From the NCBI GenBank assembly GCA_020632265.1, contig JACKFW010000001.1, positions 534,846 to 598,845 of the forward strand: DNA of 64,000 bases, read 5' to 3'. Position 1 is the stretch's first letter; each line of letters opens with the position of its first letter. This document shows positions 9,614 through 34,826 of the stretch, piece by piece. The DNA is from Pseudomonadales bacterium (lineage in GTDB: Bacteria > Patescibacteriota > Microgenomatia > UBA1400 > PJMF01). Position numbers and translations under genes: made by a program. The notes below the pieces were generated by a model. It saw only the letters and a program-made list of their open reading frames with translations. It was not told the origin of the DNA and made no database searches.

Positions 9614-10210
9614 AATCGTATAAATTGTTTTTTCTGATTACTCAATTGTACCCAAATAGATCAACTATCTTTGTATATTACTTCAAAAAAACTAAAGCCA
9701 TTAATTATCAATATGATGTAATTTTTCAATTAAAATCTAGATATTTAATAAAAAAAGTGTATAATCTGATGGACATGGGGATGTATTGCTTTGACGTGAT
9801 ATGTACTTTAACATTTGCAGACCATCTTTGACTAAGAAAGATGTAAAACAGAGTCAAAAAATAATTGCAGATACAATTGCAACTAATGTTAAAAGCATGC
9901 TTACAGAGGTTAAATCCAATGTTGCTAGCTACTTAACACCAAATTACGCTTTCGTAGCATAATTCGGCATCAATTTAAATAATTTCATTGGCGTTTTTAA
10001 ACTTGATGATTCAACTTAAGTCAATGTGACGGGTTAGCATTCGTTTGTTGATGCAAACTTTAAGTAAAAATTGACAAAGATTGTGAAAAAAAGGTTTGTT
10101 TATTTTCCCATTTCACAGTAACAAAAACAAACTAAGTCTGTAGATAATGTTAGCTTGCTATTGCGGACACGAGGTCATTCCTCGTCATCTCCACAGATAC
10201 CTACTTATTG

Positions 10211-18834: not shown

Positions 18835-19896
18835 TTAATATTGAGGCAGAAAGATGTTTCTATTTTCTAAAGTAATTACTACTTCAGGATAACCTTTTTC
18901 AATAATTATTCTAGCGGCTTTTCTAACAGCACCCTGTAAAGTTCTTCCCAAAGTTCTAATTCCAGCATCGAATCCCAATGGTCTAGTAACAACTGGCCAG
19001 ACATCCTCATTAATAATAAATTGTTCGGGATTTAATCCAGCATCTTTAAGTAATCCTGGCAATATATATTTTTTTGCAATAACAATTTTTTCATGATCAG
19101 TATAAGAAGGCATAGAAATTCTTTCCATACGATCCATAACGGCTGTAGCAATTGCTGTAGTATTATTAGCTGTGGCTAAAAAAATTGCATGTGATAAATC
19201 GACTGGAAAATCAATATAGTTATCTCGAAAAGCATGATTTTGTTTGGGATCTAATAATTCTACCAAAACACCCATAATATCTTTATTTGCTTCCGAACTG
19301 CTTCTATCAATTTCGTCCAATAGAATGACTGGATTTCTAACCCCTGCCTCGCAAATTCCCTTAATGACTCTTCCTGGTTCAGAACCTAAAATCAACCTTG
19401 AATTACCTCTAAGCTCTGCAGCAGATCCCATTCCACCAAAAGGAATTCTTACCAGTTTTCTTCCTAATGCTTCCGATAAAGATACTGCAAATGTTGTTTT
19501 TCCAGTTCCAACAAGACCAACTAACAACAAAATTGGAGCTCTAAAATCATCAAGAGTATTTGGATTTTGACTTCTCAATTTTAAGACAGCCACATATTCT
19601 AAAAATCTATTTTTAACATCTTGCATACCAAAATGATGTTTTTCAAAAATAGCTTTAGTTTTTTCAAGATCTAATGTATCTTGGGTTTCGTTTTCCCAGG
19701 GAACTTGTAAAACCCACTCAATATATTTTGAAACCTTTTCATATTTTTCATCATAGCTACCTAAGGCCACGCTTCTTTCCAGTGACACAATATCTTTATC
19801 AACCTTACTTCTCATCTCTGCAGGAAGCTTGGATAAAGAAACTTTTGATTTGAGCTCATCAATTTCTTGCTCTAGTATTTGTTTATAATCTGTCAT
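18835..19896 (-). CDS. Lon-derived AAA+ ATPase lacking both the N-terminal substrate-binding domain and the C-terminal S16 protease domain
   Basis: Collinear with the central region of Lon. It has a coiled-coil/helical segment, then VLQVPWENE...KNRFLEYVAV and Walker A (LLLVGLVGTGKTT). LVRIPFGGMGSAAELRGNSRLILGSEPGRV resembles the Lon GGxxDxAEIRGHRRTYIGxxPG block. Walker B (ILLDEID), sensor-1 (ATAN) and MDRMERI follow. The ORF ends about 60 aa after the AAA+ lid. The flanking sequence contains no protease domain. Confidence 0.75.
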   Translation of the reverse strand: MTDYKQILEQEIDELKSKVSLSKLPAEMRSKVDKDIVSLERSVALGSYDEKYEKVSKYIEWVLQVPWENETQDTLDLEKTKAIFEKHHFGMQDVKNRFLEYVAVLKLRSQNPNTLDDFRAPILLLVGLVGTGKTTFAVSLSEALGRKLVRIPFGGMGSAAELRGNSRLILGSEPGRVIKGICEAGVRNPVILLDEIDRSSSEANKDIMGVLVELLDPKQNHAFRDNYIDFPVDLSHAIFLATANNTTAIATAVMDRMERISMPSYTDHEKIVIAKKYILPGLLKDAGLNPEQFIINEDVWPVVTRPLGFDAGIRTLGRTLQGAVRKAARIIIEKGYPEVVITLENRNIFLPQY

Positions 19897-19917
19897 TTAT
19901 TTTTCTTTTTTTCAATT

Positions 19918-20844
19918 CTAATTATGCACTTTTATCTGGTCTATTGTCAATAAACCCGGTTTAGCACCTACTTGTTGAATAACTGATACAGCATTTCTTT
20001 TACCCCACTGACAACATTCTTCAATATTTTTTTTCTTTAAATAAGCAGTGACATAGCCCACGGCAAATGCATCTCCTGCGCCAGTATCATCTAAAGATTC
20101 AACTTCTCCTGATATAAATTCAGTATTTATTTGGCCTTCAACATAAACTTTGCCACCTTTTTTACCATTTGTGACAATTATTTGTTTCACATTGGCAAAA
20201 ATCTCTTGATGATATTTTTCTACTAGTTTCCATTCTTCATAATTAACAAATAGTAGTTCACATGGTATGTCTGAAAAAATAAGTTTATTTTCGTTTATTA
20301 ATGTTAACTCTTTTTTTCCAGGATTCCATGAAATTTTTTTGTTAGCCAATTTGAGAACCGAAAAAATATATTTAAGTGTATTGAGTCTTCCGGAAATACT
20401 AGAAAGGTGAATCCAATCTGCTCTAGAAATTGTTTCTTTTGGAATATCTTCTGGATCTAACATCGCAGAAGCCCCTCTATGAACCATAACAGTCCGACCA
20501 CCATCCTTGCCAACCAAAATTATTGAACCACCAGTTTTTTCTTGTTTTTCACTAATAACAAGATTGGTTGAAACATATTCCTTCTTCAAATCGTCTAAAA
20601 TAATTTTGGCAAAAGTGTCTCTACCAATTTCAGTGATAATTCCAGTTCTATAGCCCATTCGCGAAAAACCAACGGCTGTGTTGCTGCCACCACCACCAGT
20701 TCGCAGTAAATATTCTTCTACATCAATCTTTGATCCATAGGAAAAGCATATCTGAACATTATTTTCTGAATTACTGAAATCAAAATTTTTTGATTTGATA
20801 AAACTATCAATCAAACTTGATCCAATTGTTATAACGTCATACAT
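19918..20844 (-). CDS. PfkB-family carbohydrate or nucleoside kinase (ribokinase-like fold)
   Basis: An N-terminal GG dipeptide region and the C-terminal DTGAGDAFAVGYV anion-hole motif. Confidence 0.8.
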   Translation of the reverse strand: MYDVITIGSSLIDSFIKSKNFDFSNSENNVQICFSYGSKIDVEEYLLRTGGGGSNTAVGFSRMGYRTGIITEIGRDTFAKIILDDLKKEYVSTNLVISEKQEKTGGSIILVGKDGGRTVMVHRGASAMLDPEDIPKETISRADWIHLSSISGRLNTLKYIFSVLKLANKKISWNPGKKELTLINENKLIFSDIPCELLFVNYEEWKLVEKYHQEIFANVKQIIVTNGKKGGKVYVEGQINTEFISGEVESLDDTGAGDAFAVGYVTAYLKKKNIEECCQWGKRNAVSVIQQVGAKPGLLTIDQIKVHN

Positions 20845-20871
20845 AGGCAGTAGTTATTATTCTAATATATT

Positions 20872-21501
20872 TTACGATTCTGATCGATGAGGTAAACCGC
20901 AACGATCATTCAACTCATTTTCAAATTCATTTAGTGCCTGAATAAGTTCTTCTTCATCTTTGACAATTTTATAAATTGACTTTTCTTTTTCACCTACCAT
21001 AAAATGATCAAAAATGACTCTCATCAAATCTTCCCAAAATTCTCCATAAAGAATAATTGGTTTGTGATTACCATAATATAGATGTGCCAGCAACCAAGCT
21101 GTGGCCCATTCACTTAGAGTGCCGGTACCACCCCTAAAACAAATAAATGCATCAGCATTATCCATTAATCCAAACATTCTTTCAACGTAATTTGCAGTTT
21201 TTATTTCTTTGTCCACATTATTTTCAAAGAATCTACCTTCAAACTCAGGCATATCTTTGGGATAAAAAGTTACGGCTAAGGTATCTCCTCCTGCAGACTG
21301 AGCTCCTTTTGTTGCTGCATCCATAACACCCGGACCACCTCCATCAATAACTACTTTGTCATGATAAGCTAAATATCTTGCAACTTTAAATGTTTCTTTA
21401 TAAAGTGGATGAAGTTCATCAACATCAGCGCTACCAAATATCGCTACATTTTTTATTGTACAATGCTGTCGTGGTGAAGGAATCCTTATTTGTGTTTTCA
21501 T
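20872..21501 (-). CDS. LOG-family protein (nucleoside 5'-monophosphate phosphoribohydrolase / Rossmann TIGR00730 type)
   Basis: VIDGGGPGVMDAATKGA and FRGGTGTLSEW correspond to the two LOG signature motifs (GGGxGxM...GA and PGGxGTxEE). Confidence 0.75.
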   Translation of the reverse strand: MKTQIRIPSPRQHCTIKNVAIFGSADVDELHPLYKETFKVARYLAYHDKVVIDGGGPGVMDAATKGAQSAGGDTLAVTFYPKDMPEFEGRFFENNVDKEIKTANYVERMFGLMDNADAFICFRGGTGTLSEWATAWLLAHLYYGNHKPIILYGEFWEDLMRVIFDHFMVGEKEKSIYKIVKDEEELIQALNEFENELNDRCGLPHRSES

Positions 21502-21533
21502 TTTTCAAAAAATGTTTTCTACTAGTTTTTATT

Positions 21534-22190
21534 CTAATCTAAATAGGCGCTATAAGTGCCATCAAAATCTTCTGAGTTCCATAATTCACTGCCAACAGTG
21601 ACTGAATCAACTCCATAACTTTCAATTTCAGAACTGTTATTAAGTTTTACACCACCATCAACCATAACTTCAATATTTAAATTTCTGTCTTGAATCTTAT
21701 TATTTAACTCGCTCACAACATCGAGCGAGGAAAGATGAAATTCTTGGCCTTGAAAACCTGCGCGGACTCCCATTATTTGGATAATATCAATATATTGCCA
21801 TGCATCTTTTTCAATTGCTTCAAGAGGTGTGTGAAGATTTAACGATAATCCAGCAAACCAGCCATTTTTTTTAACTTCCTGAAGAAAATTTACCTGAGAA
21901 GTCATTTGTTCGACCTGACCAATAATTCCTCTTACTGGTAGGAATTCTTTTGCGTCTACAATTTCATATACAAAGTCCATCGGCTCTTGAGTCATCAAAT
22001 GAAAATCAACGTTCAAATTACCAAAATCAATAAAGGTTAAATCTGATGGAAAAACAGTTACATTATCTGCAAAATAGCCATCAATTACATCGAATTGTAT
22101 TGTTTGAACCTGAGAATTATTTCTACATAAATCAACTTGCTCAGAGGCAACTTCAATTTCATCGGTTAAAATACTTGGATATATATTCAT
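21534..22190 (-). CDS. rpe: Ribulose-phosphate 3-epimerase
   Basis: PSIL, FDVIDGYFADN, VDFHLM, GFQGQEF and VDGGVK are collinear with the Rpe motifs PSILSADF, FDVMDGHFVPN, DVHLM, NPGFGGQ and VDGGV. Confidence 0.7.
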   Translation of the reverse strand: MNIYPSILTDEIEVASEQVDLCRNNSQVQTIQFDVIDGYFADNVTVFPSDLTFIDFGNLNVDFHLMTQEPMDFVYEIVDAKEFLPVRGIIGQVEQMTSQVNFLQEVKKNGWFAGLSLNLHTPLEAIEKDAWQYIDIIQIMGVRAGFQGQEFHLSSLDVVSELNNKIQDRNLNIEVMVDGGVKLNNSSEIESYGVDSVTVGSELWNSEDFDGTYSAYLD

Positions 22191-22212
22191 ATGTTTTATT
22201 TACTAAATAATA

Positions 22213-22749
22213 TTAATTTTCGTAACTTGAAATTTCTGCAATTCTTCTAATATGCCTTTGAGACTGCGAAAAAGATGTTGCTAAAAATGAACGTAGAATT
22301 TGCTTTTGTTCATTTTCATTTGTCCAATCAGCGGGAATTGATATTACATTCACATTATTATTTTCTTTTGCATGTATTGCACTTCTTATATCATAAGCAA
22401 CCTCCGCTCTGATACCTTTTACTTTATTGGCAGCAATAACCATCCCACCACCAGAGCGACAAGCTAAAATTCCTAGTGAGTTCTCGAGTGAAGCAACTTT
22501 TTTAGCGACCGCAAAAGCATACTTCGGATAATCATCATCAGGATCTAACTCACTAGCTCCCAAATCTTCAAACTCATAAGCCCATTCATTAAGCCAACCT
22601 TTTATTTTTTCTTTCAATTCAAAACCGCCGTGATCCGATCCAAGAAAAATTTTTTTATATGAATTGTCTAAAGAATTATTTAATGAATTGTGCAAATATT
22701 TGGTCGTAGAATTATTCATAAACCCTATCATTTTGATATTTATATTCAA
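22213..22749 (-). CDS. rpiB: Ribose-5-phosphate isomerase B (RpiB/LacAB family)
   Basis: The LGSDHGGFELKE motif, an N-terminal extension, and size consistent with RpiB. Confidence 0.85.
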   Translation of the reverse strand: MNINIKMIGFMNNSTTKYLHNSLNNSLDNSYKKIFLGSDHGGFELKEKIKGWLNEWAYEFEDLGASELDPDDDYPKYAFAVAKKVASLENSLGILACRSGGGMVIAANKVKGIRAEVAYDIRSAIHAKENNNVNVISIPADWTNENEQKQILRSFLATSFSQSQRHIRRIAEISSYEN

Positions 22750-22860
22750 ACTACTAATTTTTTAATTAATTGTGCAGATTGCTGTTTATAAAGAACAACA
22801 ATTATGACTCAAATTTCGAAACTCAAATCTTCTCTAGAGTCTGATTTCAGTGCTGGTTTG

Positions 22861-22957
22861 AAATCAATTTCACAGTGCTAATTTGAGATCAATTTCACAA
22901 CGCTAATTTGAGATCAATTTCACAACGCTAATTTGAAATCAATTTCACAGCGCTAAT
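22861..22957. repeat. Tandem direct repeat of about 25 bp (ATCAATTTCACAACGCTAATTTGAG) x about 4, flanked by near-identical CTAGAGTC(T/C)GAT(T/C)TCAG segments
   Basis: Read directly. Units differ at 1-2 positions and there are no unique spacers. Confidence 0.85.
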
Positions 22958-22959
22958 AT

Positions 22960-23292
22960 CTAGAGTCCGATCTCAGCACGAGCCTCTTCAGTCATCATAT
23001 CAGTTATCCAAGGTGGATCAAAGGTAAGTTCAACCTCAACATCTTTCTGAGCATCAACTCCTTCAATTTCTGAAAGTGAGTCTCTGACCATTTTATCAAA
23101 AACTCCAATTAATGGACAACCTGGAGTAGTAAGGGTCATGAGAATATGAATTTTATCTCTTTCTCCAGATTCAAGCTGAACTTTTCCAATTGTAACGTCA
23201 TAGATAAGTCCCATGCTAACAATATCTATATTTAGTTCAGGATCAATAACAGTTGAAAGACACTTGTAAATATTTTTTGTTGTTAAATCCAT
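22960..23292 (-). CDS. sufT: DUF59/MIP18-family Fe-S cluster assembly protein (SufT-like)
   Basis: N-terminal VIDPELNIDIVSMGLIYD and the conserved TPGCP motif of the DUF59 family. Confidence 0.7.
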   Translation of the reverse strand: MDLTTKNIYKCLSTVIDPELNIDIVSMGLIYDVTIGKVQLESGERDKIHILMTLTTPGCPLIGVFDKMVRDSLSEIEGVDAQKDVEVELTFDPPWITDMMTEEARAEIGL

Positions 23293-23396
23293 ATGTTGTG
23301 GTTAATAAATTTATTATGTGCAATAAACTTTTTATGACTAATAAACTTTTTGTTTGAATATAATAATTTAGATATTAAAGAATAGCAACTCACAAC

Positions 23397-23437
23397 AAAA
23401 AGCCCCTCGAGAATTTCTCGAGGGGCTTTCATTTTTA
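23397..23437. terminator. Bidirectional rho-independent terminator (GC-rich 11-bp stem AGCCCCTCGAG / CTCGAGGGGCT flanked by A-run and T-run)
   Basis: Perfect hairpin with AAAA before and TTTCATTTTT after. It serves the minus-strand small gene 23452..23667 and any plus-strand readthrough. It also lies inside, and so argues against, the 74-aa ORF 23283..23507. Confidence 0.8.
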
Positions 23438-23451
23438 ATCTTATAGAGAGA

Positions 23452-23667
23452 TTATTTTGACCTCTTAAGAACAGGCATATTTGTTCTCTTTGTTTCCATG
23501 ACTTCATAGCCAGCTGGAACTGCGCCTAATGCTTCTGGTCTAACATCTCTTGCGAAATAGTAGATTCTTTGAACTCTACCATTTTTAAGAGTTACCTCTT
23601 TGGTGTGCAAGTAATATACTTGACCCTTTGCATTTGTGTAGCTGAATGCTTTTGGTGCATCTGCCAT
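23452..23667 (-). CDS. Small basic conserved-looking protein (71 aa), unknown function
   Basis: Clean ORF with locally elevated GC, followed immediately by a strong intrinsic terminator. Sequence MADAPKAFSYTNAKGQVYYLHTKEVTLKNGRVQRIYYFARD... Confidence 0.5.
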   Translation of the reverse strand: MADAPKAFSYTNAKGQVYYLHTKEVTLKNGRVQRIYYFARDVRPEALGAVPAGYEVMETKRTNMPVLKRSK

Positions 23668-23832
23668 AGTTACTCCTTTTCTTGCCTTATTAATAGAAGG
23701 CTATTTTATTTTCTTTATACTAAGCCGACAACATTTATATATTATATTGATGCTTCGTTAATATGTTAAAGTTTTATTACTAGATTAAGCTTATCACACT
23801 CGGCGAAGTCATCAAGAAGCAAATTTAAAATA

Positions 23833-24408
23833 TTACTCTGCTTCCATTTCAACTGAATCTTCAGCTGAAATTACTCCTCTAAGAATAATGTTTTTTAGAA
23901 CATCCGATGCTTCTACTTCTTGGCTAACAATTACTTCAAATGGCAATAACTCTTCTGGTAATGATGCCGAACCGACATAACCACCTTTTCCTGAAACTAA
24001 AGAGAACACCTCTCTCATTGCAGTCCCATCAACCTCTTTTAGCCAAACATTATAATCTAAATCAGATTCTGGAAGATTGGCTACAACTGAAAAACGAACT
24101 TTTCCATCCTTAATTTCATATCTAATCACACCTTCTGAATCAACTATCATACTGTTTTCTTCAGAAATGTCTGAATCATCCATTTTTTCTGATTCTTGAG
24201 AACTAGACACTAGGTCAACAACTTTATAATCTCCAACTCCATTGACTGAATTTACCAACTCTTCTTCACTTAAGTTTTCAATTTCTACTCCTTCGGCGAA
24301 CATATCTTGCTCTAAACGTTGAGTTCGCATGTTATACCACCTAAAAACTAGGAGAAAAACAACACTTAAAACAACAAGTGGAAATATATACGGCGTGTAC
24401 TTTTTCAT
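23833..24408 (-). CDS. N-terminally membrane-anchored acidic protein, unknown function
   Basis: A single N-terminal TM helix, then a highly acidic extracytoplasmic region. Confidence 0.5.
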   Translation of the reverse strand: MKKYTPYIFPLVVLSVVFLLVFRWYNMRTQRLEQDMFAEGVEIENLSEEELVNSVNGVGDYKVVDLVSSSQESEKMDDSDISEENSMIVDSEGVIRYEIKDGKVRFSVVANLPESDLDYNVWLKEVDGTAMREVFSLVSGKGGYVGSASLPEELLPFEVIVSQEVEASDVLKNIILRGVISAEDSVEMEAE

Positions 24409-24444
24409 AATCTACCCTTCAATCCAGCCTTATAAGGCTAAAAT

Positions 24445-25206
24445 TTACTCATTACTAACTAATAATGACTCTACTGTTGTGTACAACTGAGGGGCAGATA
24501 CTTTAATTCCGTTAACATAAAAAGTTGGTGTTGAATTGACCCCCAGCTGATTGCCTACATTTGAGTCATTTGTTACCATTTCTATTACAGAATTATCTTC
24601 TATTCTCTCTAGGAATTGAGTTCTGTCAATATCCAACTTTTCTGCATATGTAACAAATGTGTCAGTTAATTCATCACGATCAGTGATACCTGACCATGTT
24701 TCTTGATTCTCAAAAAGAAGGTCGTGCATACCCCAAAATTTATCCCTATTTATTGAGGAAACAGCTTCGGCTGCAATTGCAGCTTTTCTAGCATTTGGAT
24801 GAATAGAATCAAGTGGAAAATAACGAAAAATTAACCTAACTTTTCCTGGAAAAGCATCAATAATTGACATTGCTACAGGAGCAGCATTTTTACATGCCGG
24901 ACACTGAAAATCTGAGAATTCAACAATTGTAACTACTTCTGAGTCAGGAATTAATTCACTTGATTCCGATGCCATTTGAGCAAGATTATTATTGGAATCT
25001 TGTACATTTAATTCTGAAGAGATTTCTAAATCTTGAGGATCAGAAAAAATAATTGAATTCCTTGCATCTCCAATTACAAGTGCAGAGTCAACTACTACTT
25101 GACCATCTTGAGCCGAATTAGAACTACCAGAAAACATGAAAGCAACTACCACAATTAGTAACAATGTTCCTACAATTGTAGCTATTAAGAGTGGAATGTT
25201 TTTCAT
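24445..25206 (-). CDS. Membrane-anchored thioredoxin-fold thiol:disulfide oxidoreductase (DsbA/BdbD-like)
   Basis: N-terminal TM anchor and CxxC active site in FSDFQCPACKNAAP. DsbA-like length and pattern (cis-Pro region VNSTPTFYVNG). Confidence 0.7.
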   Translation of the reverse strand: MKNIPLLIATIVGTLLLIVVVAFMFSGSSNSAQDGQVVVDSALVIGDARNSIIFSDPQDLEISSELNVQDSNNNLAQMASESSELIPDSEVVTIVEFSDFQCPACKNAAPVAMSIIDAFPGKVRLIFRYFPLDSIHPNARKAAIAAEAVSSINRDKFWGMHDLLFENQETWSGITDRDELTDTFVTYAEKLDIDRTQFLERIEDNSVIEMVTNDSNVGNQLGVNSTPTFYVNGIKVSAPQLYTTVESLLVSNE

Positions 25207-25319
25207 ATGGGTAATAGCATACCATATTTACTCAAGATGCAAAGAGCAATAGATCTGAAGTATATAACAACCTTGAATTTATAATCAAAAAAAAATATTA
25301 CATCAAATTTTGTCTGATC

Positions 25320-25592
25320 TTAACTTTTTGGCCAAACCTGCTCACCTGTCTCAGTATCAGTTACAATAATCGCATTAGTTGGACAACTTTGAGCAGCAAG
25401 CAATTTCTCCTCATCACTATTGCCATCTTGAGAAACTACAATTGCAATTCCCTCTTCATCCAATTCAAAAATTTTAGGTGCAATAGCTTCACAACTACCA
25501 GCACTAATACATTTATCTCTAATTACTTCTACCTTATATTTACCAATTTTTTTCTCTTGAACTACTGGCATATCATTTGTATCATCTGACAT
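25320..25592 (-). CDS. Small single-cluster [3Fe-4S]/[4Fe-4S] ferredoxin
   Basis: DKCISAGSCEAIAP ... AAQSCPTNAI cysteine pattern (CxxxxxC...CP) typical of mono-cluster ferredoxins. 90 aa. Confidence 0.7.
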   Translation of the reverse strand: MSDDTNDMPVVQEKKIGKYKVEVIRDKCISAGSCEAIAPKIFELDEEGIAIVVSQDGNSDEEKLLAAQSCPTNAIIVTDTETGEQVWPKS

Positions 25593-25619
25593 ATTGTTTC
25601 TCCTTAAAAAATTTATAAT

Positions 25620-26333
25620 TTAATTGAACTTTTCAAAATGAATATCTTCTTTGGATACTCCACGCTCTTGAATTAAAGCATTCACATCATCTATCATTTT
25701 TGCACTACCACAAAGATAATATCCTCCCTTAATTGGAACATCGTGAACTTGTAAACAATCAGTAACTCTACCTTTACACAATGGCCATTCTTCTATTGCC
25801 CTAGAAATGACTGGATGAAACTTGAAGTTTTCGTAATTTTCTACTAAATCTTGAAATTCATTTTCCCAAAATAAGTCTTCAACATATCTCAATCCCCAAT
25901 ATAATGTGATAGGACGCTTCTCTCCAACATCTTGCAGTAAATTTAAAATCATAGATCTAAATGGAGCAATCCCAGAACCTGTTGCCACAAACACCAATTC
26001 CTCACAATCATCTCCGTGAATTAAAGTAAATCTACCCAAAGGACCAAGAACATCGACCTCTTCACCGAATTTTAAATTCCTTAAAAAATTACTTCCAACA
26101 CCATCTGGTAAATGCTCAATTAGCAACTCAAAACTATGCTTTGTGTCAGAATTACTACATATAGAATATGATCTTCTATCTCCATGTTCGTCTACGGTTA
26201 TAGAAACATATTGTCCTGATTCAAATTCCATCTCATTAGGATGATCAAGTTCAAAAACGTATTTGGTAAATTTCTCATTAAAGTCTGTTTTATCTGTTAA
26301 TTTTGCGATAAATCTTTGTGGCTTCATAGACAT
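25620..26333 (-). CDS. Ferredoxin-NADP+ reductase-type FAD/NAD(P)-binding oxidoreductase (FNR-like, no Fe-S domain)
   Basis: FAD-binding RSYS motif (RRSYSICS) and NAD(P)-binding GSGIAPFRS with a C-terminal CGS motif (YLCGSAKM). Confidence 0.75.
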   Translation of the reverse strand: MSMKPQRFIAKLTDKTDFNEKFTKYVFELDHPNEMEFESGQYVSITVDEHGDRRSYSICSNSDTKHSFELLIEHLPDGVGSNFLRNLKFGEEVDVLGPLGRFTLIHGDDCEELVFVATGSGIAPFRSMILNLLQDVGEKRPITLYWGLRYVEDLFWENEFQDLVENYENFKFHPVISRAIEEWPLCKGRVTDCLQVHDVPIKGGYYLCGSAKMIDDVNALIQERGVSKEDIHFEKFN

Positions 26334-26342
26334 ATACTCCGA

Positions 26343-26918
26343 TTAATATTTAATATTATTCATCCAATTTCTACCATACCATAGTCCTAGTGCTAATTTG
26401 ATAATACCTTGATATTCCTCAGTTCTATCCACAAATCCTTGAGTAACAACACCTATCATACCTTGTTTTTTACGAACATCTGCCTCGCCAACAAGTTGAG
26501 CAATTATTGGACCCATTTCTCCGCCAGATCTAATCTTTTCTGCTACTACATCAGGAACCATAAATCTTGCTCCGTTGGCAAACTCCATAAATCCAGTTTT
26601 ATCAATCACGGCTGCCCAAACAGTAGACCACATCTGACCTTCCTCATCATCAAAAATTCCACCCTCCAAACCAACTCCCAAAATTTGATCATCTTTAAAA
26701 CTGAATCCATCTACTTCATATTTCTTCAATGCCTCATTCAAAGTTGCTTTAGCTCTATTTATCGCACCTGTTTTGGTAATTTTATCTCCAATTGGTTGCT
26801 CAGGAATATCACTTTTAACATCAAAACCCTCAACAATAACATCTGGCCAAGTCTCAATTGAAGCATTAAGGACTGAGTTAATTTTGACTGGGTTATGTGA
26901 ACCTACAAAAATATGCAT
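26343..26918 (-). CDS. Non-canonical purine NTP phosphatase (inosine/xanthosine triphosphatase, YjjX/DUF84 family)
   Basis: Collinear with E. coli YjjX. Start MHIFVGSxNPVKI matches MHQVVCATTNPAKI, and SDIPEQPIGDKITKTGAINRA matches [21 protein letters not shown]. Confidence 0.7.
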   Translation of the reverse strand: MHIFVGSHNPVKINSVLNASIETWPDVIVEGFDVKSDIPEQPIGDKITKTGAINRAKATLNEALKKYEVDGFSFKDDQILGVGLEGGIFDDEEGQMWSTVWAAVIDKTGFMEFANGARFMVPDVVAEKIRSGGEMGPIIAQLVGEADVRKKQGMIGVVTQGFVDRTEEYQGIIKLALGLWYGRNWMNNIKY

Positions 26919-27035
26919 AATAGGTGAAGTGTAACAAATCTGGAATTAAATGGGAATACTTATACATCTTTTTATAATAATTAATATATTTTAAAAATAT
27001 ACTTTAAAAATATATTTAAAAAATATACTTTAGAC

Positions 27036-27419
27036 TTATTTTGCTTCAAGTTTATTCAATAGTTTCCTTACAGCAGTCAATCCTAACAACAAACACTTGA
27101 TTCTACCAACTGAAATTTTATCTAAACCTAAATCTTGTAAGATTTCTTTTTGAGATAATTGCTGAATTTTGACAATTTCTGATCCTATAATTCTTTGAGA
27201 TAAAACGCTCATAGATGCTTGTGAAATCACACAGCCCTGACCCTTCCACTTAATGTCTTGAATCTTTTTTTTATCTTTAGACAATTTTACAGAAACAGTA
27301 ATAACGTCACCACAACTTGCGTTATAATTAGTTGATACAAAATCAGGAGTTTCCAAATCCCCAAAATTATTTGGGTTTCTGGCTTCATCCAACAGATCTA
27401 AATGATAAATATCGTTCAT
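27036..27419 (-). CDS. sufU: SUF-system sulfur-transfer/scaffold protein SufU (IscU/NifU-like)
   Basis: Three conserved Cys contexts: ASCGDVITV, GQGCVISQAS and RIKCLLLG. Confidence 0.85.
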   Translation of the reverse strand: MNDIYHLDLLDEARNPNNFGDLETPDFVSTNYNASCGDVITVSVKLSKDKKKIQDIKWKGQGCVISQASMSVLSQRIIGSEIVKIQQLSQKEILQDLGLDKISVGRIKCLLLGLTAVRKLLNKLEAK

Positions 27420-27424
27420 AAAAT

Positions 27425-28666
27425 TTAAAGTAAAATTTCGGCAACTTTTTCCAAACCCCTTGCTAATAAATCAACATCATCCTTGGAATTATAAATTTGA
27501 AAACTTGCTCTCGTGGTAGCTACCCAATTTTGAGAAGTGTGCAGAGGCATCGTGCAGTGATGTCCAGATCTGACGGCAATACCTTGACTATCCAAGACTT
27601 GAGCAACATCATGGGCGTGTACTCCTTGATAAAGAAATGCCACCGAACCAACCCTAGTTTCATCTTTTGGTCCCACAATTTCAATATTTTTAATTTTTGC
27701 CAACTTTTTAAGTGCATAAGCCACTAATTGCGAATCATGCTTATGAACATTCTCCATACCTAATTGACTCAGGTATCTAGACGCCTCAGCTAAACCAACA
27801 ATTGAAGCAACGTCTGGAGTTCCTGGAGTAAATCGCTCACTTAGATCATCCTGAAAATTTGTATGCGATTCATGCACCTGCGCAATCATACCTCCACCAA
27901 ATAACCATGGTCTCATTTCCCCAGTTTTTAAAATATTTTCTCGAACTAATAGACCTCCAATACCCATTGGACCCAACATTTTATGACCAGAGAACACAAA
28001 AAAATCTACATTCATTTTTTCAAAATTTATGGGCAAATGAGGTGCAGACTGTGCTCCATCAACCAAAATTCTAGATTTTGGTGTAAACTTTTGCACTTTT
28101 TGTACCAACTTTTTTAAATCTAGCTTGCTACCTAAAGCATTCGAGACGTGTGGAACTGCCACTAATTTCAATTTATGACCAAATTTCTGAAGTTTTTCAT
28201 CAAAATCATTAAAATCAAACTTACCATCTTTAGTAATTTTTATAAACACCAAATTAGCCTTCTTTCTTTTACAAAGTTCCTGCCAAACCACAATGTTAGA
28301 ATGATGATCTAAAATTGAAACTAAGATAAGATCGTCAGCAACTATATTTTGCTCACCCCAACCATAGGCCAAGCCATTAATTGCTTCGGTAGTATTTCTG
28401 ACAAAAATTACTTCGTCATTTTTAGCACCTAAAAAATTTGCGATAGTCGTCTTTGAAGTTTCAAATAAATTAGTACTTTCATCAGATAAAGTATGCACTC
28501 CTCGATGTACATTAGCATTACAATACGAATAGTAATTGGAAATTGCATCAATCACGCTTTGAGGCTTCTGACTTGTGGCGGCATTATCAAGATAAACTAA
28601 CTTTTTATGATTAATTTCGCGCGACAAAATTGGAAAATCTTTTTTTATAGCATGAACATCTAACAT
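27425..28666 (-). CDS. sufS: Cysteine desulfurase SufS (class V aminotransferase). The ORF is open to 28741, but the likely start is Met26 (MLDVHAIKKDFPIL).
   Basis: The PLP-Lys motif SGHKMLGPMGIGGL and the active-site Cys loop RSGHHCTMPL. The N-terminus aligns with the canonical SufS start from MLDV. Confidence 0.9.
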   Translation of the reverse strand: MLDVHAIKKDFPILSREINHKKLVYLDNAATSQKPQSVIDAISNYYSYCNANVHRGVHTLSDESTNLFETSKTTIANFLGAKNDEVIFVRNTTEAINGLAYGWGEQNIVADDLILVSILDHHSNIVVWQELCKRKKANLVFIKITKDGKFDFNDFDEKLQKFGHKLKLVAVPHVSNALGSKLDLKKLVQKVQKFTPKSRILVDGAQSAPHLPINFEKMNVDFFVFSGHKMLGPMGIGGLLVRENILKTGEMRPWLFGGGMIAQVHESHTNFQDDLSERFTPGTPDVASIVGLAEASRYLSQLGMENVHKHDSQLVAYALKKLAKIKNIEIVGPKDETRVGSVAFLYQGVHAHDVAQVLDSQGIAVRSGHHCTMPLHTSQNWVATTRASFQIYNSKDDVDLLARGLEKVAEILL

Positions 28667-28780
28667 AGAGATATATTGTAACATCTGGTTGTAAATTGTA
28701 ATATCTGGAGAAGGAAATTGTAATATCTGAGTGCAATACAATTATAAATCAATTTTTAATCCTATAATTATTGACTATAA

Positions 28781-29008
28781 ATGTTATTTAGTGCTATAAT
28801 TCCCAATCTTTTTGTAAAATTACAGACTCAACTTGTATTCAAATATAAAATTCAAATGGCAAACAAATTAAAAGAATCAGCGAAAAATATTTTGGGACTT
28901 AACTCAAGCGGTCCATTATTACAACGAACTGATTATGAGAATTTAATTAGTCTTTCAGATGCTACAAAAGAAGATCATGAACTAGCAATGAAAAACAACA
29001 AAGGTTAG
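28781..29008 (+). CDS. Small hypothetical protein (50-75 aa), convergent with sufS
   Basis: ORF only, no motifs. It may start at the internal Met (MANKLKESAK...). Confidence 0.3.
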   Translation: MLFSAIIPNLFVKLQTQLVFKYKIQMANKLKESAKNILGLNSSGPLLQRTDYENLISLSDATKEDHELAMKNNKG

Positions 29009-29024
29009 GATCGCTTTTGAAAAC

Positions 29025-29555
29025 ATGATCTCCAAACATACTAATGAAGATCAAAAAAAAGAAGATCAAAATACGATAAATACATACATTAATATACTTA
29101 CAGCACTATACAATTTAATTATTTCAAAAGAGAATGAAAATACTGTCTTAATCAATTTTGATGTGTTTTCAATAAATGATTGGAAGACATTCTATTTTGT
29201 TATGAGTGATTTCTTACATTATTTATACAACTCTGATTATAATGATCCTCAAACAGAAAATGCTACTGTTGCGGGATTTCCCACACTTCTTAAATACTTA
29301 AAAATCTTTGAAAAAATTTGCATGGCAATTACTCCAGAAGCAAAAAAAATAAGAGTTTATTGGATGGATTTTGAAGATGAACCAACAATTCAACAAAGAA
29401 CAAATAGTTTGAGATCTTATAACATACAAGAAACACTATATGCATTAATCGAAAATTACACAAATGATGATCTTAAGAGTTTAATTGAAGACAGCAACGG
29501 CCAGGATATGGAAGATGCTTGGGTATTTGTTGATTACATTAAACAGCAAAAGTAA
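29025..29555 (+). CDS. Hypothetical protein (176 aa)
   Basis: Clean ORF immediately after the previous small ORF. No recognisable domain. Confidence 0.45.
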   Translation: MISKHTNEDQKKEDQNTINTYINILTALYNLIISKENENTVLINFDVFSINDWKTFYFVMSDFLHYLYNSDYNDPQTENATVAGFPTLLKYLKIFEKICMAITPEAKKIRVYWMDFEDEPTIQQRTNSLRSYNIQETLYALIENYTNDDLKSLIEDSNGQDMEDAWVFVDYIKQQK

Positions 29556-29760
29556 AAACTTTACTTAGCCTAAAAAAATTGAGTAAAAACATAAAATTCT
29601 TGTAATAATTATTTTATTCACAGAAATAAAAAATCTAACTTAATTTTTTGTATATCCAAACATAGGTGGGATATGTACGGCATTATTAGCTATCTATTTT
29701 CTGTGGAAGCTCTGCATGGCTTTTCCTAAGATTGTTATAAAACTAATGTTGTCGGAAAAT

Positions 29761-30711
29761 TTATTCTTGAGCAATTGTGTCCAAATATTTATTTTCGTAT
29801 TCTAGAACAAGATTTAGCAAAGTACAACTAAGAAATAGAGCACGAAATTGCCTTGCTTCTTTTGGATCACTTGATAATAGTTTGAGTTGCCCATCGACAA
29901 AATCATGATAATTAAAAGATCGCTGAGATCTCTCGTTAGAATGATTGATTTGTAAAATCGATGAATTTGAATCACCATTTAATAATTTTTCAAATTCAGC
30001 TAAAGGATAAGAACCCGACTTATATTTTTTTTGACCATCTCCAGTCAAAGGATGTAAAGAAAATTTGACACCCTCAATAGGATCATAACTCAAGAGATAT
30101 GGTGCAAATGGACCTATTAATTCTTTTAATTTTATTTGCATTTCTTCAAATTTTCTAATCTGTTCAAGTACATCTTGTCTTAATGGATCATCATCAGGAT
30201 TGGGATAATCTGGTTCGCAATGTAATACAATATATTTTAGTGTACTGATTGCTTCGTATTGTCCAGGTTCAATATCGTAGGGATTGGGATTAAAACTAAT
30301 ATGAAACAAAATCGTACCATCTTCAGATTTTTTATCAAGATATGTAATAAAGCCAAAAAGAAAACCAAATAGAGAAAGATCTGTATATCCAGCTTTCAAT
30401 AAAAGTTCTTTAAGAGTAGATGTTAAAATTACACGTTCAACATCCCTACTACAATCAGAGCGAAGATTTTCACCAGTATTTAAATAATCCCATAATTTCC
30501 GCCTATTAGGTTCTAGTCCCTCTCTTCGTTTTTTTTCTTTTATGAAATGAATAATTTGGCCTGCTGATTGACTTTCAATAATTGTTGGTTCTTGAGCAAA
30601 AAATTTTCTACGAATATTAAGAAAATCTGGTTTTTTTTTAGCTAATATTTCTTTCATGGATATCAAATTATATATAAATATATCATAATTGTCAATATAA
30701 TTCAGCTTCAA
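29761..30711 (-). CDS. Hypothetical protein (316 aa), no recognisable domain
   Basis: Long ORF co-directional with the suf genes. No nucleotide-binding or catalytic motifs recognisable by eye. Confidence 0.55.
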   Translation of the reverse strand: MKLNYIDNYDIFIYNLISMKEILAKKKPDFLNIRRKFFAQEPTIIESQSAGQIIHFIKEKKRREGLEPNRRKLWDYLNTGENLRSDCSRDVERVILTSTLKELLLKAGYTDLSLFGFLFGFITYLDKKSEDGTILFHISFNPNPYDIEPGQYEAISTLKYIVLHCEPDYPNPDDDPLRQDVLEQIRKFEEMQIKLKELIGPFAPYLLSYDPIEGVKFSLHPLTGDGQKKYKSGSYPLAEFEKLLNGDSNSSILQINHSNERSQRSFNYHDFVDGQLKLLSSDPKEARQFRALFLSCTLLNLVLEYENKYLDTIAQE

Positions 30712-30927
30712 ACTTTAAAAAATCCTTCAACTATCAAGTCTTCAGTAGCTTTTTTAAAAATAACTCTTGATCGTAAATAAAAAAAGTAGCGATTCTAAAA
30801 TTTTACTAAAACTAGCCTTAATTAGCACCTCAGCTCTCGCACGCTCAACTCTTATGAATTTGCAGTAATGAAAAACAATTATAGCCACTCAAAGATTTTT
30901 TGCTTAAAAAAATCTAATATAAATAAC

Positions 30928-32160
30928 TCATTGTTTACTATCTATTTTTTTTGGATGAACAAGTAATGGATATTTATTTTGCAGATCACTACCTAATGTA
31001 ATAAGATTTGGCATATTATCTGGAACAGACAAAGCACTATGAGTTAATACTGCCCTTCCAAGTTTTTTTAGAAGAAATTCCTTATCATCATCACCAAACT
31101 TATCTCTAACCATTAGCATTAGTCTTCTAATTTCATTTTCATCGAAAATATCACTTATAACAGGTATTTCCCAACCATCATCTTCTTTATGAAGTATGTG
31201 AAAATTTTTTTCACTTAGAGTTAATTTTTTATAATTTTTATTTTGCAATCTCGCTCTTATTTCCTCAATTTTTTTCTCTAAGTTATCTGTAGCTTGCTGA
31301 GTGGCATAACCATAGCAAAACACAATATTTGTCTTATTATCAACTAAACCATAAGCTATTTGATATGCGTCATCTATGTGTCGAACTGCATTTGACTTAT
31401 CTGTACCACCTAAAGTCCAATCATCTCCAAAAACCACAGCCCCAATTTTATCTTGTTCATTCGGGGGCAGACCACTCCTCAAAAGAAATCGATAAACTGC
31501 CAATTGATTTATTTGTCTAAATTCACAAGTTAAAGCAATTCTCTGTTTTCCTCTTTCAAGAAGAAATAAAATAGGAGGAAAGCCTCTTTTATACCAATAA
31601 CGAGAGGCGTAGTTTTCATCTTTGTAAAGGAAGTCGACATTGACTCTGTATTTACCTTTATCAATCAATAAGGCTGGTAATTTTGAAAGAACAAAGGGAC
31701 CCATGTCCTTTATTTGTTTAACTAAATAATCATCTTTAAGAAAATCTGGATACAAAGGATCATTCTCAGGATTATATTCTTTAAAGCCTTTTCTCATCAA
31801 AAATTCTAAAAACATTTTAGTTACTTGAAAACCCGATGGTTCCCATTTTTTATTCCCTTCTACTATCTCTCCTGATGGATAATATTCTCTTGCTACTGTT
31901 GACCAATAAATATTATCCCCTCCGGCTAATTTGAGAATCTCCTCCCACCTTTTTTCCATCATTTCTTTAATTTCCCTTTCTGAAAGGTAATTTACTGCCA
32001 AAATTAGTCTTTTAACAAGACCGAGGTCATTTGCTGATGGTGAAAGTTTAGAAATCCATTCTTGAAATCTTCCAGGATTAATATGTCGAGAAATCAAATC
32101 AGAATGTGAAAGACCAATATCTATTTCTCCATTTCCTGTATTGACATCTATTTTTCTCAT
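30928..32160 (-). CDS. Hypothetical protein (410 aa), no recognisable domain
   Basis: Long ORF co-directional with the suf genes and immediately downstream of sufD. No Walker motifs. One conserved-looking block reads GAVVFGDDWTLGGTDKSNAVRHIDDAYQIAYGLVDNKTNIVFCYGYATQQ. Confidence 0.55.
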   Translation of the reverse strand: MRKIDVNTGNGEIDIGLSHSDLISRHINPGRFQEWISKLSPSANDLGLVKRLILAVNYLSEREIKEMMEKRWEEILKLAGGDNIYWSTVAREYYPSGEIVEGNKKWEPSGFQVTKMFLEFLMRKGFKEYNPENDPLYPDFLKDDYLVKQIKDMGPFVLSKLPALLIDKGKYRVNVDFLYKDENYASRYWYKRGFPPILFLLERGKQRIALTCEFRQINQLAVYRFLLRSGLPPNEQDKIGAVVFGDDWTLGGTDKSNAVRHIDDAYQIAYGLVDNKTNIVFCYGYATQQATDNLEKKIEEIRARLQNKNYKKLTLSEKNFHILHKEDDGWEIPVISDIFDENEIRRLMLMVRDKFGDDDKEFLLKKLGRAVLTHSALSVPDNMPNLITLGSDLQNKYPLLVHPKKIDSKQ

Positions 32161-32207
32161 TACAGAATATTATATCAAAATATTGAGGAAATATACTTTA
32201 ATATAGT

Positions 32208-32693
32208 TTAAATTTTCAAGAAACCTTGTATAATTAAATCTTCAGCTTGTTTCTTTTGAATACCTCTAGACATTAAATAGAATAGTTGTTCAGAAGGAAT
32301 TTCGCTAACACTAGCTGCGTGAGAACATTTCACATCGTCTGTCAAAATCTCCAATTCTGGTACTGCTTCCGCACTTGCTTGATTAGATAATAACAAAACT
32401 CTCTCAGTTAAAAACGAGTTACTTAAACCACAACCTTCATTAATGACAATTCTTCCAAATAATCTGATTCTGGATTGATCTCGAGCCACTCCTCTTAAAG
32501 TAGTATTAGCCAAAGTATTTTTGGCTTTATGATGAACAGTAACTTCAACATCAATAAAATCGTCATTTTGAGCCAAAAAACTTCCCAAAATTTCAACTTC
32601 AGCACCTTGACCAACTAAATCAATAAAATACTTACCTGATTTTCCAATCAAAATTGTTTTTTTCTGGTCCTTTTTAATTATATATTTTTGCAT
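32208..32693 (-). CDS. sufD: SufD-like Fe-S assembly protein, short form (161 aa; C-terminal SufB/SufD beta-helix core only)
   Basis: The C-terminal motif SHAASVSEIPSEQLFYLMSRGIQKKQAEDLIIQGFL matches the SufB/D family C-terminus. Compare SufB here: QHEATVSKIGDDQLFYLMSRGVSEEQARKMIVNGF. Confidence 0.65.
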   Translation of the reverse strand: MQKYIIKKDQKKTILIGKSGKYFIDLVGQGAEVEILGSFLAQNDDFIDVEVTVHHKAKNTLANTTLRGVARDQSRIRLFGRIVINEGCGLSNSFLTERVLLLSNQASAEAVPELEILTDDVKCSHAASVSEIPSEQLFYLMSRGIQKKQAEDLIIQGFLKI

Positions 32694-32819
32694 CTTATTT
32701 TTAATTTTTTTATATTCAGGTCAATTGCTAAGTTGTATTTAATAAATATTTCTTAATAAACGAACGATTAAAATCGAAGATTTGTGTGAGCGATTAAAAA
32801 ATATTTATTAAAAACTGAA

Positions 32820-34247
32820 TTATCCAATCGATCCCTCCATTTCATGATCTATTAACCGATTCATTTCAACTGCATACTCAAGCGGAAGTTTGCGAACTAA
32901 ATCATCAATAAATCCATTAACTATCATTTTTCTTGCCTGTTCTTCACTTACTCCACGACTCATTAAATAGAATAGTTGATCATCACCAATTTTAGAAACA
33001 GTTGCTTCGTGCTGGATCTCTACTTGATTATTAAAAATTTTATCAATAGGATATGTATCAGATCTAGAGTCTGGATCCAAAAGAAGAGCGTCACAAATTA
33101 CCGTATTTTTACTTCCATGTGCATTAGGACCCACATTTACAAGTCCGCGATAACTAGTTCTTCCACCACCCTTACTAATTGACTTAGAAACCACACTAGA
33201 ACTGGTATAAGGTGCCAAATGAATTGATTTGGTGCCAGTGTCTTGATGCTGATCAGTTCCCGCTAAAGCCATTGATAAAACCTCTCCACGAGCTCCTTTG
33301 CCAGCAAGAATAAACCCTGGATATTTCATAGTCACCTTTGAACCCATATTAAAATCAGTCCAAATCATTTCTGCTTCAGCTTCTACATACGCTCTTTTGG
33401 TCACCAAATTATAAATATTCTTGTACCAATTTTGCACCGTAGTGTATTGACATCTCGCACCCTTTTTAACGTAAATTTCCACAACTGCTGCATGCAAAGA
33501 ACCAGAAGAAAAACTAGGTGCTGTGCAACCTTCAATATAATGAACACTTGCTCCTTCATCAACAATAATTAAAGTTCTTTCAAACTGCCCAGCGTTAGGT
33601 GAGTTAATTCTAAAATAAGTTTGTAGCGGCATGCTTACATGAACACCTTTTGGGATATATACAAAAGATCCACCCGACCAAGTTGCGGTATTTAAGGCAG
33701 AAAATTTATTATCACCATAAGGAATAACTTTATTGAAATATTCTCTAACTAAATCTGGATACTGAGCTAATCCCTCATCCATTGATAAAAAAATCACTCC
33801 ATCCTTGGCCCAAATATTTTGAAGTGAGCCATAAACGACCTCGCTATCATACTGAGCTTTAACTCCCGCTAGAACTTCGCGCTCAGCTTTAGGAATTCCT
33901 AGTTTTTCGAAAGTCTCTTTTACCTCTGGAGGAACGTCATCCCAAGATTTTTCCTGCTTATCTGATGGACTTAAATAGTAACGAATCTTATCATAATTTA
34001 TTGCTGATAAATCTGCTCCCCAAATCGGCGTTTTTTTTGCCTCAAAAGCCTTGAAAGATTCAAGACGCAATTTTAACATCCACTCGGGTTCATTTTTAAT
34101 TGCAGATATTTCTCTAACTACGCTTTCATTTAAACCAGGTTTTAAAATATGAACATAATTTTTGGTAGAGTACGAGAAACCATGCTCATAGGCATCTGTG
34201 TTATCAGATTCGAAATCACCAGTTTTTTTTTGAGCAAATCGCGTCAT
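32820..34247 (-). CDS. sufB: Fe-S cluster assembly protein SufB
   Basis: 475 aa with conserved SufB blocks: the PIWGADLS region, a C-terminal beta-helix and the LFYLMSRG motif. Confidence 0.9.
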   Translation of the reverse strand: MTRFAQKKTGDFESDNTDAYEHGFSYSTKNYVHILKPGLNESVVREISAIKNEPEWMLKLRLESFKAFEAKKTPIWGADLSAINYDKIRYYLSPSDKQEKSWDDVPPEVKETFEKLGIPKAEREVLAGVKAQYDSEVVYGSLQNIWAKDGVIFLSMDEGLAQYPDLVREYFNKVIPYGDNKFSALNTATWSGGSFVYIPKGVHVSMPLQTYFRINSPNAGQFERTLIIVDEGASVHYIEGCTAPSFSSGSLHAAVVEIYVKKGARCQYTTVQNWYKNIYNLVTKRAYVEAEAEMIWTDFNMGSKVTMKYPGFILAGKGARGEVLSMALAGTDQHQDTGTKSIHLAPYTSSSVVSKSISKGGGRTSYRGLVNVGPNAHGSKNTVICDALLLDPDSRSDTYPIDKIFNNQVEIQHEATVSKIGDDQLFYLMSRGVSEEQARKMIVNGFIDDLVRKLPLEYAVEMNRLIDHEMEGSIG

Positions 34248-34304
34248 ATATCATTCAGAAATTATAAAATCTCTTTTCTTTTGTTTATTTAGCTATATTC
34301 TTGT

Positions 34305-34790: not shown

Positions 34791-34826
34791 ATGTTTTTAT
34801 TGAAGTTTTTTGCTAATTTAATTAAT

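Follow-up and report, generated by a model that had tools for sequence, protein, structure and literature searches.

A LonA-derived AAA+ ATPase without substrate-binding and protease domains in Microgenomatia and Dojkabacteria

The locus and its product

The subject of this report is a gene on the minus strand of a 64,000-nucleotide stretch of contig JACKFW010000001.1 (the 64-kb window), which encodes a LonA-type AAA+ ATPase with neither the substrate-binding domain at the N-terminus of Lon nor the S16 Ser-Lys protease domain at its C-terminus, and which we call AAA-only Lon. In Lon, the textbook example of an AAA+ protease in a single chain, ATPase and protease are hardly ever known to occur one without the other. 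The open reading frame (ORF) is uninterrupted and begins with ATG, and the identical NCBI protein, MCB9813301.1, carries the label 'AAA family ATPase'. The features of the gene and protein, with E. coli Lon numbering in brackets, are as follows.

18835..19896, minus strand: ORF of 353 residues plus stop, protease-less, N-domain-less LonA-type AAA+ ATPase
19546..19896, minus strand: residues 1-117, the end of the LonA long helix and the three-helix bundle (NTD-3H), aligned to E. coli Lon 250-347; AlphaFold2 helices at 2-21, 26-44, 50-64, 77-87 and 92-110; includes Y58 and W61 (Y294/W297) and, at residues 62-67, the VLQVPW block
19114..19545, minus strand: residues 118-261, AAA+ large (alpha/beta) subdomain, by the Pfam AAA match at 123-260 and by Foldseek alignment to Lon structures
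19492..19518, minus strand: Walker A GLVGTGKTT, residues 127-135 (K133), where canonical Lon has GPPGVGKTS
19372..19410, minus strand: pore-loop-1 region RGNSRLILGSEPG, with Ile169 at the place of Tyr398, Ser at R395 and Glu at M402; the surrounding Lon-type loop, FGGMGSAAELRGNSRLILGSEPG, is residues 153-175
19306..19326, minus strand: Walker B ILLDEID (D194, E195; LLDEID is 192-197), invariant in all three groups compared below
19261..19305, minus strand: pore-loop-2 region, residues 198-212, RSSSEANKDIMGVLV, with NKDI for the canonical RGDP
19165..19167, minus strand: sensor-1 Asn244 (N473), invariant, role from PMC7239648
19129..19131, minus strand: arginine finger Arg256 (R484), invariant, role from PMC7239648
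18838..19113, minus strand: residues 262-353, lid (small alpha) subdomain; Pfam Lon_lid at 284-335; AlphaFold2 helices at 267-286, 297-307 and 313-334
18955-18957, minus strand: sensor-2 Arg314 (R542), in the motif PLGFDAGIR where Lon has YTREAGVR
18838..18855, minus strand: C-terminal tail IFLPQY-COOH, ending where the linker to the Lon protease domain begins (Y578-L579-G580)

The ORF is collinear with LonA residues ~250-580, that is, with the three-helix bundle and the large and lid subdomains of the AAA+ module, and its start corresponds to E. coli residue ~245-250. (The E. coli Lon query served for numbering only; the numbering agrees with PMC7239648.) Pfam finds AAA (PF00004, residues 123-260, 58.5 bits) and Lon_lid (PF22667, residues 284-335) in the protein and nothing else, neither the LON N-domain nor Lon_C. 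The Lon_lid score of 26.3 bits is slightly under the cutoff of 27, and family representatives score 32-48 bits. The top NCBIfam model is TIGR00763 (endopeptidase La), of which positions 252-568 of 795 are covered (E=4e-91) with 306.6 bits, half the equivalog cutoff of 608.05; NF008053 gives 228.9 bits against a cutoff of 891, and the Pfam and NCBIfam scans returned no dedicated family for AAA-only Lon. Among solved structures the sequence matches 7p6u, over its residues 249-574 (E=2e-69), 3m6a, human LONP1 and 6n2i. The AlphaFold2 monomer model (mean pLDDT 91.6, pTM 0.85) predicts a confident Lon-AAA+ fold, for which Foldseek retrieves Lon NTD-3H plus AAA+ modules (LONP1, E=1e-31; 6n2i, TM 0.86/0.89).

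The preliminary description, made from the sequence alone, had aligned the protein with the middle of Lon, and TIGR00763, 7p6u, tblastn and Foldseek all agree with it. The VLQVPW block, Walker A, Walker B and loop FGGMGSAAELRGNSRLILGSEPG that it named are all in place, and alignment to the Lon profiles, the check it had proposed, gives AAA and Lon_lid only. Its estimate that the ORF runs ~60 residues beyond the lid was mistaken: the protein stops where the lid does, at the site of the AAA/protease linker (E. coli ~580-584).

The missing domains

Could the missing domains be encoded nearby? On its upstream side 21 nt separate the ORF from the end of the PfkB kinase gene, and on its downstream side UDG begins after 76 nt, so that the flanks hold no space for them. 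Hidden Markov models (HMMs) for the N-domain and S16 domain of Lon, made from 59 canonical Lons, were run against all stop-to-stop frames of the window and 21 related loci from Patescibacteria (409 kb, including control loci L021 and L022); the inspected DNA amounts to ~2-6% of any one genome, the source genome being 1.08 Mb. Whatever the frame, neither model matched the window or the 21 loci (~345 kb), and the canonical Lons of L021 and L022 were detected at 1e-78 to 1e-88 (N-domain) and 1e-89 to 1e-103 (S16). When E. coli Lon was compared with the window by tblastn, the sole matched part was residues 250-579, at 35% identity, and the protease part, residues 585-784, gave no match. The absence of both domains, and of a Ser-Lys protease in the flanking frames and neighboring genes, had been proposed from inspection and is upheld by the Pfam, HMM and tblastn scans. 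We also looked for a frameshifted lon at this locus, for Lon_C fused in relatives, and for a full-length Lon; none was found, since there is no N-domain or S16 match in the window or the Patescibacteria loci.

Three candidates were set aside along the way. A weak Lon_C HMM match at window positions 44712-46187 (E=0.013) falls in IF-2 and is a short chance or P-loop match; a 790-residue ORF at 39636-42008, considered as a full-length Lon, is PNPase; and a 169-residue gene upstream of the homologue in locus L004, considered as a split N-domain, is secreted/membrane-like and Thr/Ser/Ala-rich, with no Lon similarity.

These results bear on the proposal that AAA-only Lon is half of a split Lon, its ring docking on a separately encoded S16 (Lon_C) domain or other self-compartmentalized peptidase, in the manner of HslU-HslV or ClpX-ClpP. 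The protein does end exactly at the AAA/protease linker, with a conserved tail; the ATPase site is intact; and the inspected part is a small share of the 1.08-Mb genome. Against this, no S16 domain was found in the window or the 21 related loci, none being adjacent in any lineage, and the pore-loop tyrosine that a feeding unfoldase needs is lost, its site being hypervariable. No peptidase gene is linked to AAA-only Lon in the 23 related loci, except for an M23 peptidase in locus L091 that is unrelated to AAA+ proteolysis. We know of no natural split LonA, and the literature searched gave no report of one. A split Lon is, in our judgment, unlikely.

Distribution and conservation

Is the short form an accident of one genome? 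A collection of clusters representing 5.8 billion proteins was searched, and the best 120 clusters, taken as the close group, are 75-100% identical to the window protein, 352-389 residues long (mostly 352-353), and all of AAA plus Lon_lid only; those members that have names belong to Woesebacteria, Pacebacteria and the Microgenomates group. Searching with a profile built on the divergent branch brought in 120 more clusters of 366-632 residues, again with AAA and Lon_lid only, whose named members are mostly Dojkabacteria/WS6. The AAA-only architecture is thus present in more than 240 protein clusters across Microgenomatia and Dojkabacteria, and ten 50%-identity representatives have AAA and Lon_lid only. 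In an exhaustive phmmer search over 1.84 billion 50%-identity representatives, all full-length single-stretch matches above ~42% identity lack the protease (351-669 residues, some with Q/P-rich N-terminal extensions), canonical Lons of 750-850 residues begin at ~36-42% identity, and no fused full-length relative of the AAA-only clade was found. A GTDB scan gave 12 species-level loci with ORFs of 341-408 residues, among whose named members are Levybacteria, Shapirobacteria and 'Patescibacteria group'. The family is monophyletic in a neighbor-joining tree with 60 canonical Lons, the group of the window protein being nested inside it. The family signature, a non-PP Walker A together with an xxDAEPG or LxLGSEPG loop, always coincides with the absence of S16, and short proteins with canonical motifs look like pieces of ordinary Lons.

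AAA-only Lon is also the most conserved gene of its neighborhood. Compared with loci L004, L006 and L010 it is 77-78% identical, versus 37-72% for nine neighboring genes (PfkB 45-52%, UDG 52-57%, RNase J 59-68%, FtsK 63-67%). The C-terminal tail shares in this conservation: among 120 close homologues I348, F349 and P351 are present in 100% and Y353 in 98%. Judged from these sequences, the gene is under strong purifying selection.

One would think that a gene missing two of three Lon domains might be a decaying remnant or pseudogene of full-length lon. The ORF is intact, however, with its length conserved in hundreds of clusters and its catalytic residues invariant, and the flanking genes are tightly packed and hold no domain remnants. 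The truncated form is strongly conserved, and more so than its neighbors, and on this ground decay is excluded; we give it practically no credence. The preliminary description had likewise taken the gene to be no obvious pseudogene, citing an ATPase that looked intact, and had asked whether the truncated form is conserved in related genomes. It is, at 352-354 residues in most of the best 120 clusters, and it extends to Dojkabacteria.

Several observations on relatives may be recorded here. In five proteins (P0132, P0136, P0139, P0142 and P0143) long, low-complexity, Q/P/T/S-rich N-terminal extensions, up to ~325 residues in P0142, replace the Lon N-domain, and Pfam found no match in them. Another set (P0121-P0130 and others) consists of giant Lon-like proteins of 960-1675 residues with two or three separate Lon AAA+ stretches each. 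The sequences of P0121 and P0123 have tandem AAA+ modules, each with a helical bundle, followed by one S16 domain, and some modules have non-canonical pore loops, such as TYVDAAPG in P0123. Finally, some source labels are apparently wrong. The window protein is filed under 'Pseudomonadales bacterium', and the metagenome-assembled genomes of L011, L012 and L014-L017 carry labels that include 'uncultured Gammaproteobacteria'. Mislabeling is suspected because close relatives, gene order and composition are all those of Patescibacteria (Microgenomatia).

An intact ATPase site and an altered pore

We compared alignment columns among 120 close members of the family, 21 distant members and 60 canonical Lons, taking residue roles (Y398, I399, R395, R396, sensor-1 N473, arginine finger R484) from Shin et al. 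2020 (PMC7239648). Walker A K133 (E. coli K362), Walker B D194/E195 (D423/E424), sensor-1 N244, the trans-acting arginine finger R256 and sensor-2 R314 are invariant in all three groups, so that the catalytic AAA+ ATPase residues of the HCLR clade are present in all 141 family members as in canonical Lon. The family has likewise retained the LDPxQN...F.D hairpin region and, in the helical bundle, Y294/W297. The Walker A motif is altered around its lysine, reading GPPGVGKTS in canonical Lon, GLVGTGKTT in the close group and GL[VAQ]G[TVI]GKT[TS] in distant members. With every ATP-binding and hydrolysis residue invariant, the hydrolysis site is complete, in keeping with the first impression of intact motifs. 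The conserved trans-acting arginine finger implies ring assembly, and the protein is therefore expected to form a hexameric ATPase ring.

The residues with which canonical Lon grips and moves a polypeptide tell a different story. Pore loop 1 reads RGHRRTY[IV]G[AS][ML]PG in canonical Lon, with Tyr, Thr and Arg395 at 100% in the 60 Lons, versus RGxSRLxL[GE][SA]EPG in the close group and RGxS[RK]xxP[DE]AEPG in distant members; in the window protein the canonical RGHRRTYIG is RGNSRLILG. Thus the aromatic Y398 with R395/R396 is not found here, Ile replacing the tyrosine and Ser replacing R395. Throughout the family R395 is replaced by Ser and M402 by Glu, and G400 becomes Asp or Glu in distant members and Glu in 26% of the close group. 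The column equivalent to Tyr398 has zero entropy in canonical Lon, versus 2.54 bits in the close group, where it holds nine residue types (I/L/N/Y/K/H/V and others) among proteins at least 75% identical; the core median there is 0.07, and the column is the 12th most variable of 353. Pore loop 2 is RGDP in canonical Lon, N[KR]DI in the close group and RADI in distant members. The bridge residue E447, which links the nucleotide state to the neighboring subunit (PMC7239648), is Glu in canonical Lon, Ala, Lys or Ser in the close group, and still Glu in 57% of distant members. The YTRE of the YTRE(AGVR) motif is PLG[YF]D in both family groups. The proteins are also acidic, with pI 5.1-6.1 (one exception) versus 8.9 for the same E. 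coli Lon segment. By their sequences, then, the family members have replaced or relaxed the residues for grip and translocation. The Lon-specific loop of the preliminary description is accordingly matched in outline, but its key pore-loop tyrosine is lost.

Might the protein nevertheless be a classical stand-alone unfoldase or chaperone, which threads a polypeptide through its axial pore as Lon does and releases it undegraded? The intact ATPase motifs and the Lon-AAA+ fold are in favor, as is the frequency of LILG or LLLG, two aliphatic residues followed by Gly, at the loop tip in the subfamily of the window protein. A protease-dead Lon, yeast Pim1, reportedly has chaperone-like activity. Against threading, the equivalent of the tyrosine is N, K, H, Y, I, L or V among near-identical proteins, with Gly replaced by Glu in 26% of these, and distant members carry x-P-D at the loop tip. 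R395, the pore-loop-2 GDP and the E447 bridge, which couple hydrolysis to loop movement, are lost, and there is no N-domain for substrate recognition. We consider classical threading doubtful, though it deserves some weight. The earlier suggestion of a stand-alone unfoldase or chaperone, or of a partner for a protease, therefore survives in part. A remodeler or chaperone role is possible, probably not by way of classical Lon threading; an unfoldase or a protease partner as then stated is disfavored by the replacement of Y398, R395, GDP and E447 and by the lack of a linked peptidase.

Genome context

On the minus strand of the window the genes run FtsH ... HrcA-GrpE-DnaK-DnaJ-NusA-IF2-S15-...-PNPase, and then, after ~20 kb, RpiB-Rpe-LOG-PfkB-[AAA-only Lon]-UDG-(plus-strand methyltransferase)-membrane protein-RNase J-FtsK. 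FtsH and DnaK/DnaJ/GrpE are thus encoded in the window. In other Microgenomatia the genes follow, in part, the order DnaK-DnaJ-NusA-IF2-S15-PNPase-[AAA-only Lon]-RNase J-FtsK; locus L023 has it complete. In Dojkabacteria the contexts are unrelated, the gene adjoining VirB4/PrgI-like genes.

Do these neighbors point to a role linked to nucleic acids, such as RNA turnover with PNPase and RNase J, or work on DNA with UDG and FtsK? The gene lies between PNPase and RNase J-FtsK in seven Microgenomatia loci (in L020 only the PNPase side is seen, as the contig ends), and the called ORFs of AAA-only Lon and RNase J overlap in L017 and L023. UDG comes directly downstream in loci of the window type, and it does so too in L008 and L019, two distant members with a stop/start overlap. 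The PNPase-X-RNaseJ-FtsK and X-UDG adjacencies are real, but as a guide to function we have down-weighted them, because the whole housekeeping backbone is collinear, so that adjacency may be inherited synteny, and because the Dojkabacteria contexts are unrelated. Further, the proteins are acidic where the E. coli Lon region is basic, and the equivalent of the basic patch through which E. coli Lon reportedly binds DNA (R306/K308/K310/K311) reads E-N-E-T-Q-D in the window protein. A nucleic-acid-linked role seems improbable to us.

One further feature concerns expression of the gene.

19921..19950, minus strand: candidate promoter TTGACA-18-CATAAT, 11/12, the best sigma-70-like match, inside the 3' end of the PfkB gene and ~25 nt upstream of the ATG

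By its match to the consensus this may be the gene's own promoter; sigma-70-like matches in the region do not exceed, in total, the shuffled expectation.

Other features of the window and of related loci are noted briefly. The ~20-kb gap between PNPase and AAA-only Lon (window ~19900-39600) holds RpiB, Rpe, LOG-family, PfkB kinase, DeoC-like aldolase and Fe-S assembly-type genes. Elsewhere in Microgenomatia the gene directly follows PNPase; the stretch is a lineage-specific rearrangement or insertion common to L004, L006 and L010. In two Dojkabacteria loci (L090, 11187-17317; L091, 12270-16716) AAA-only Lon lies beside a type-IV-secretion-like cluster with VirB4/TraG-type ATPase, TraC-like and PrgI-like genes, and the cluster of L091 also holds type IV secretion system pilin genes. 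A tmRNA gene at window positions 9777-10196 (plus strand) matches Rfam RF00023 over the full-length model with 76.2 bits and was not reported by ARAGORN; FtsH (56247-58289) is a candidate protease for ssrA-tagged proteins. From ~10000 to ~62000 nearly all ORFs of at least 150 residues are on the minus strand, with a GC skew of ~-0.2 and ~32% G+C, which resembles the strand composition disparity that a paper about one complete Microgenomates genome names in its title (PMC7143001). Two divergent tRNA-Met (CAT) genes, ~120 nt apart, lie at 62486-62746 and score 70.5 and 42.6 bits, the second being the lower. A 616-residue protein with a Peptidase_C39-like domain is encoded at 3986-5836 (plus strand), and a 360-residue CARDB-domain protein at 42330-43412 (minus strand), within the otherwise conserved S15-PNPase stretch.

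What might a Lon ring do without proteolysis?

On balance, we lean toward reading AAA-only Lon as an ATPase derived from Lon but no longer tied to proteolysis, nor probably to classical threading, and encoded by a genuine, functional gene of a Patescibacteria-specific, LonA-derived family. A LonA ancestor would have lost its N-terminal substrate-binding domain and S16 protease while keeping the three-helix bundle and AAA+ module. The product would form a hexameric ATPase ring in which ATP hydrolysis has ceased to drive processive threading into a degradation chamber. Because the substrate-gripping loops have changed, the protein probably no longer feeds a protease. Its most likely role would be that of an ATP-driven, non-proteolytic remodeler, chaperone or nucleotide-dependent switch acting on some housekeeping client, engaged either by the surface of the ring or by its pore, which is re-modeled and more acidic.

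Four considerations weigh against this reading. The hexamer is a prediction from conserved residues; the loop of the window subfamily is often L-I-L-G, whose tip makes a hydrophobic grip, and so some threading, possible there; a partner peptidase may be encoded beyond the ~2-6% of each genome inspected; and the genes around it differ between Microgenomatia and Dojkabacteria.

A bolder proposal, which we put forward only tentatively, is that Microgenomatia and Dojkabacteria have repurposed the Lon motor as a non-proteolytic, probably non-threading and likely essential ATPase, in which the acidic, variable pore loop and the conserved aromatic C-terminal tail provide a new mode of client engagement, and which may replace canonical Lon entirely in their reduced genomes; or else that the protein belongs to the first natural two-gene (split) Lon, with an unrecognized peptidase partner.

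Full-text literature searches found no description of a protease-less Lon in the candidate phyla radiation (CPR)/Patescibacteria. The JGI label for these proteins, 'ATP-dependent Lon protease', is misleading: since the N-domain and S16 domain are absent, the equivalog score falls short and the pore-loop tyrosine is lost, AAA-only proteins should not be filed as Lon protease, nor counted as such in metabolic or proteostasis reconstructions of CPR bacteria. A large, conserved lineage that has the motor only, its gripping tyrosine drifting, is a natural experiment on the Lon ring without proteolysis, and it is relevant to the way in which protein quality control is run, with minimal machinery, in ultra-small symbiotic bacteria.

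Comparison with known systems

How does AAA-only Lon compare with its relatives? It is nearest to LonA (endopeptidase La, MEROPS S16; E. coli and Y. pestis Lon, human LONP1), with ~35-40% identity over E. coli ~250-580. The two share the three-helix bundle of the N-terminal domain, the AAA+ large and lid subdomains, the Walker A Lys, Walker B DE, sensor-1 Asn, arginine finger and sensor-2 Arg, Y294/W297, and the LDPxQN...F.D PS1-hairpin region. Unlike LonA, AAA-only Lon is without the LON N-domain and S16, has replaced Tyr398, R395, the pore-loop-2 GDP and YTRE, has a GL[VAQ]GTGKTT Walker A instead of GPPGVGKTS, is acidic instead of basic, and scores at half the TIGR00763 cutoff. LonB, the archaeal/Bacillus type in which AAA+ (with a membrane insertion in archaea) is fused to S16 and the N-domain is absent, does not fit, as there is no S16 and the best sequence and structure matches are to LonA/LONP1.

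A laboratory construct, 6N2I ('Lon protease AAA+ domain'), an engineered E. coli fragment of 344 residues, has nearly the same extent: query residues 11-348 align to its chain residues 10-337 (TM 0.86/0.89). The natural protein is the equivalent of that construct, although 6N2I is an artificial cut of a protease with canonical pore loops, whereas the window protein belongs to a naturally truncated, independently evolving family.

LonC of Meiothermus taiwanensis is a Lon-like protease without ATP-powered unfolding activity (PMC3391209). Both LonC and AAA-only Lon derive from Lon and have broken the usual link between its ATPase and its protease. They are mirror images, LonC having an active S16 domain and a degenerate, non-hydrolyzing AAA-like module, and AAA-only Lon having intact ATPase motifs, an apparently active ATPase, and no protease. 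HslU and ClpX, which belong with Lon to the HCLR clade (10.1101/617159), are stand-alone AAA+ rings whose peptidases are encoded separately. Their pore loops are aromatic, their peptidase partners are known, and they dock by dedicated elements (C-terminal tail, IGF loop), whereas in AAA-only Lon neither an aromatic pore loop nor a partner is evident.

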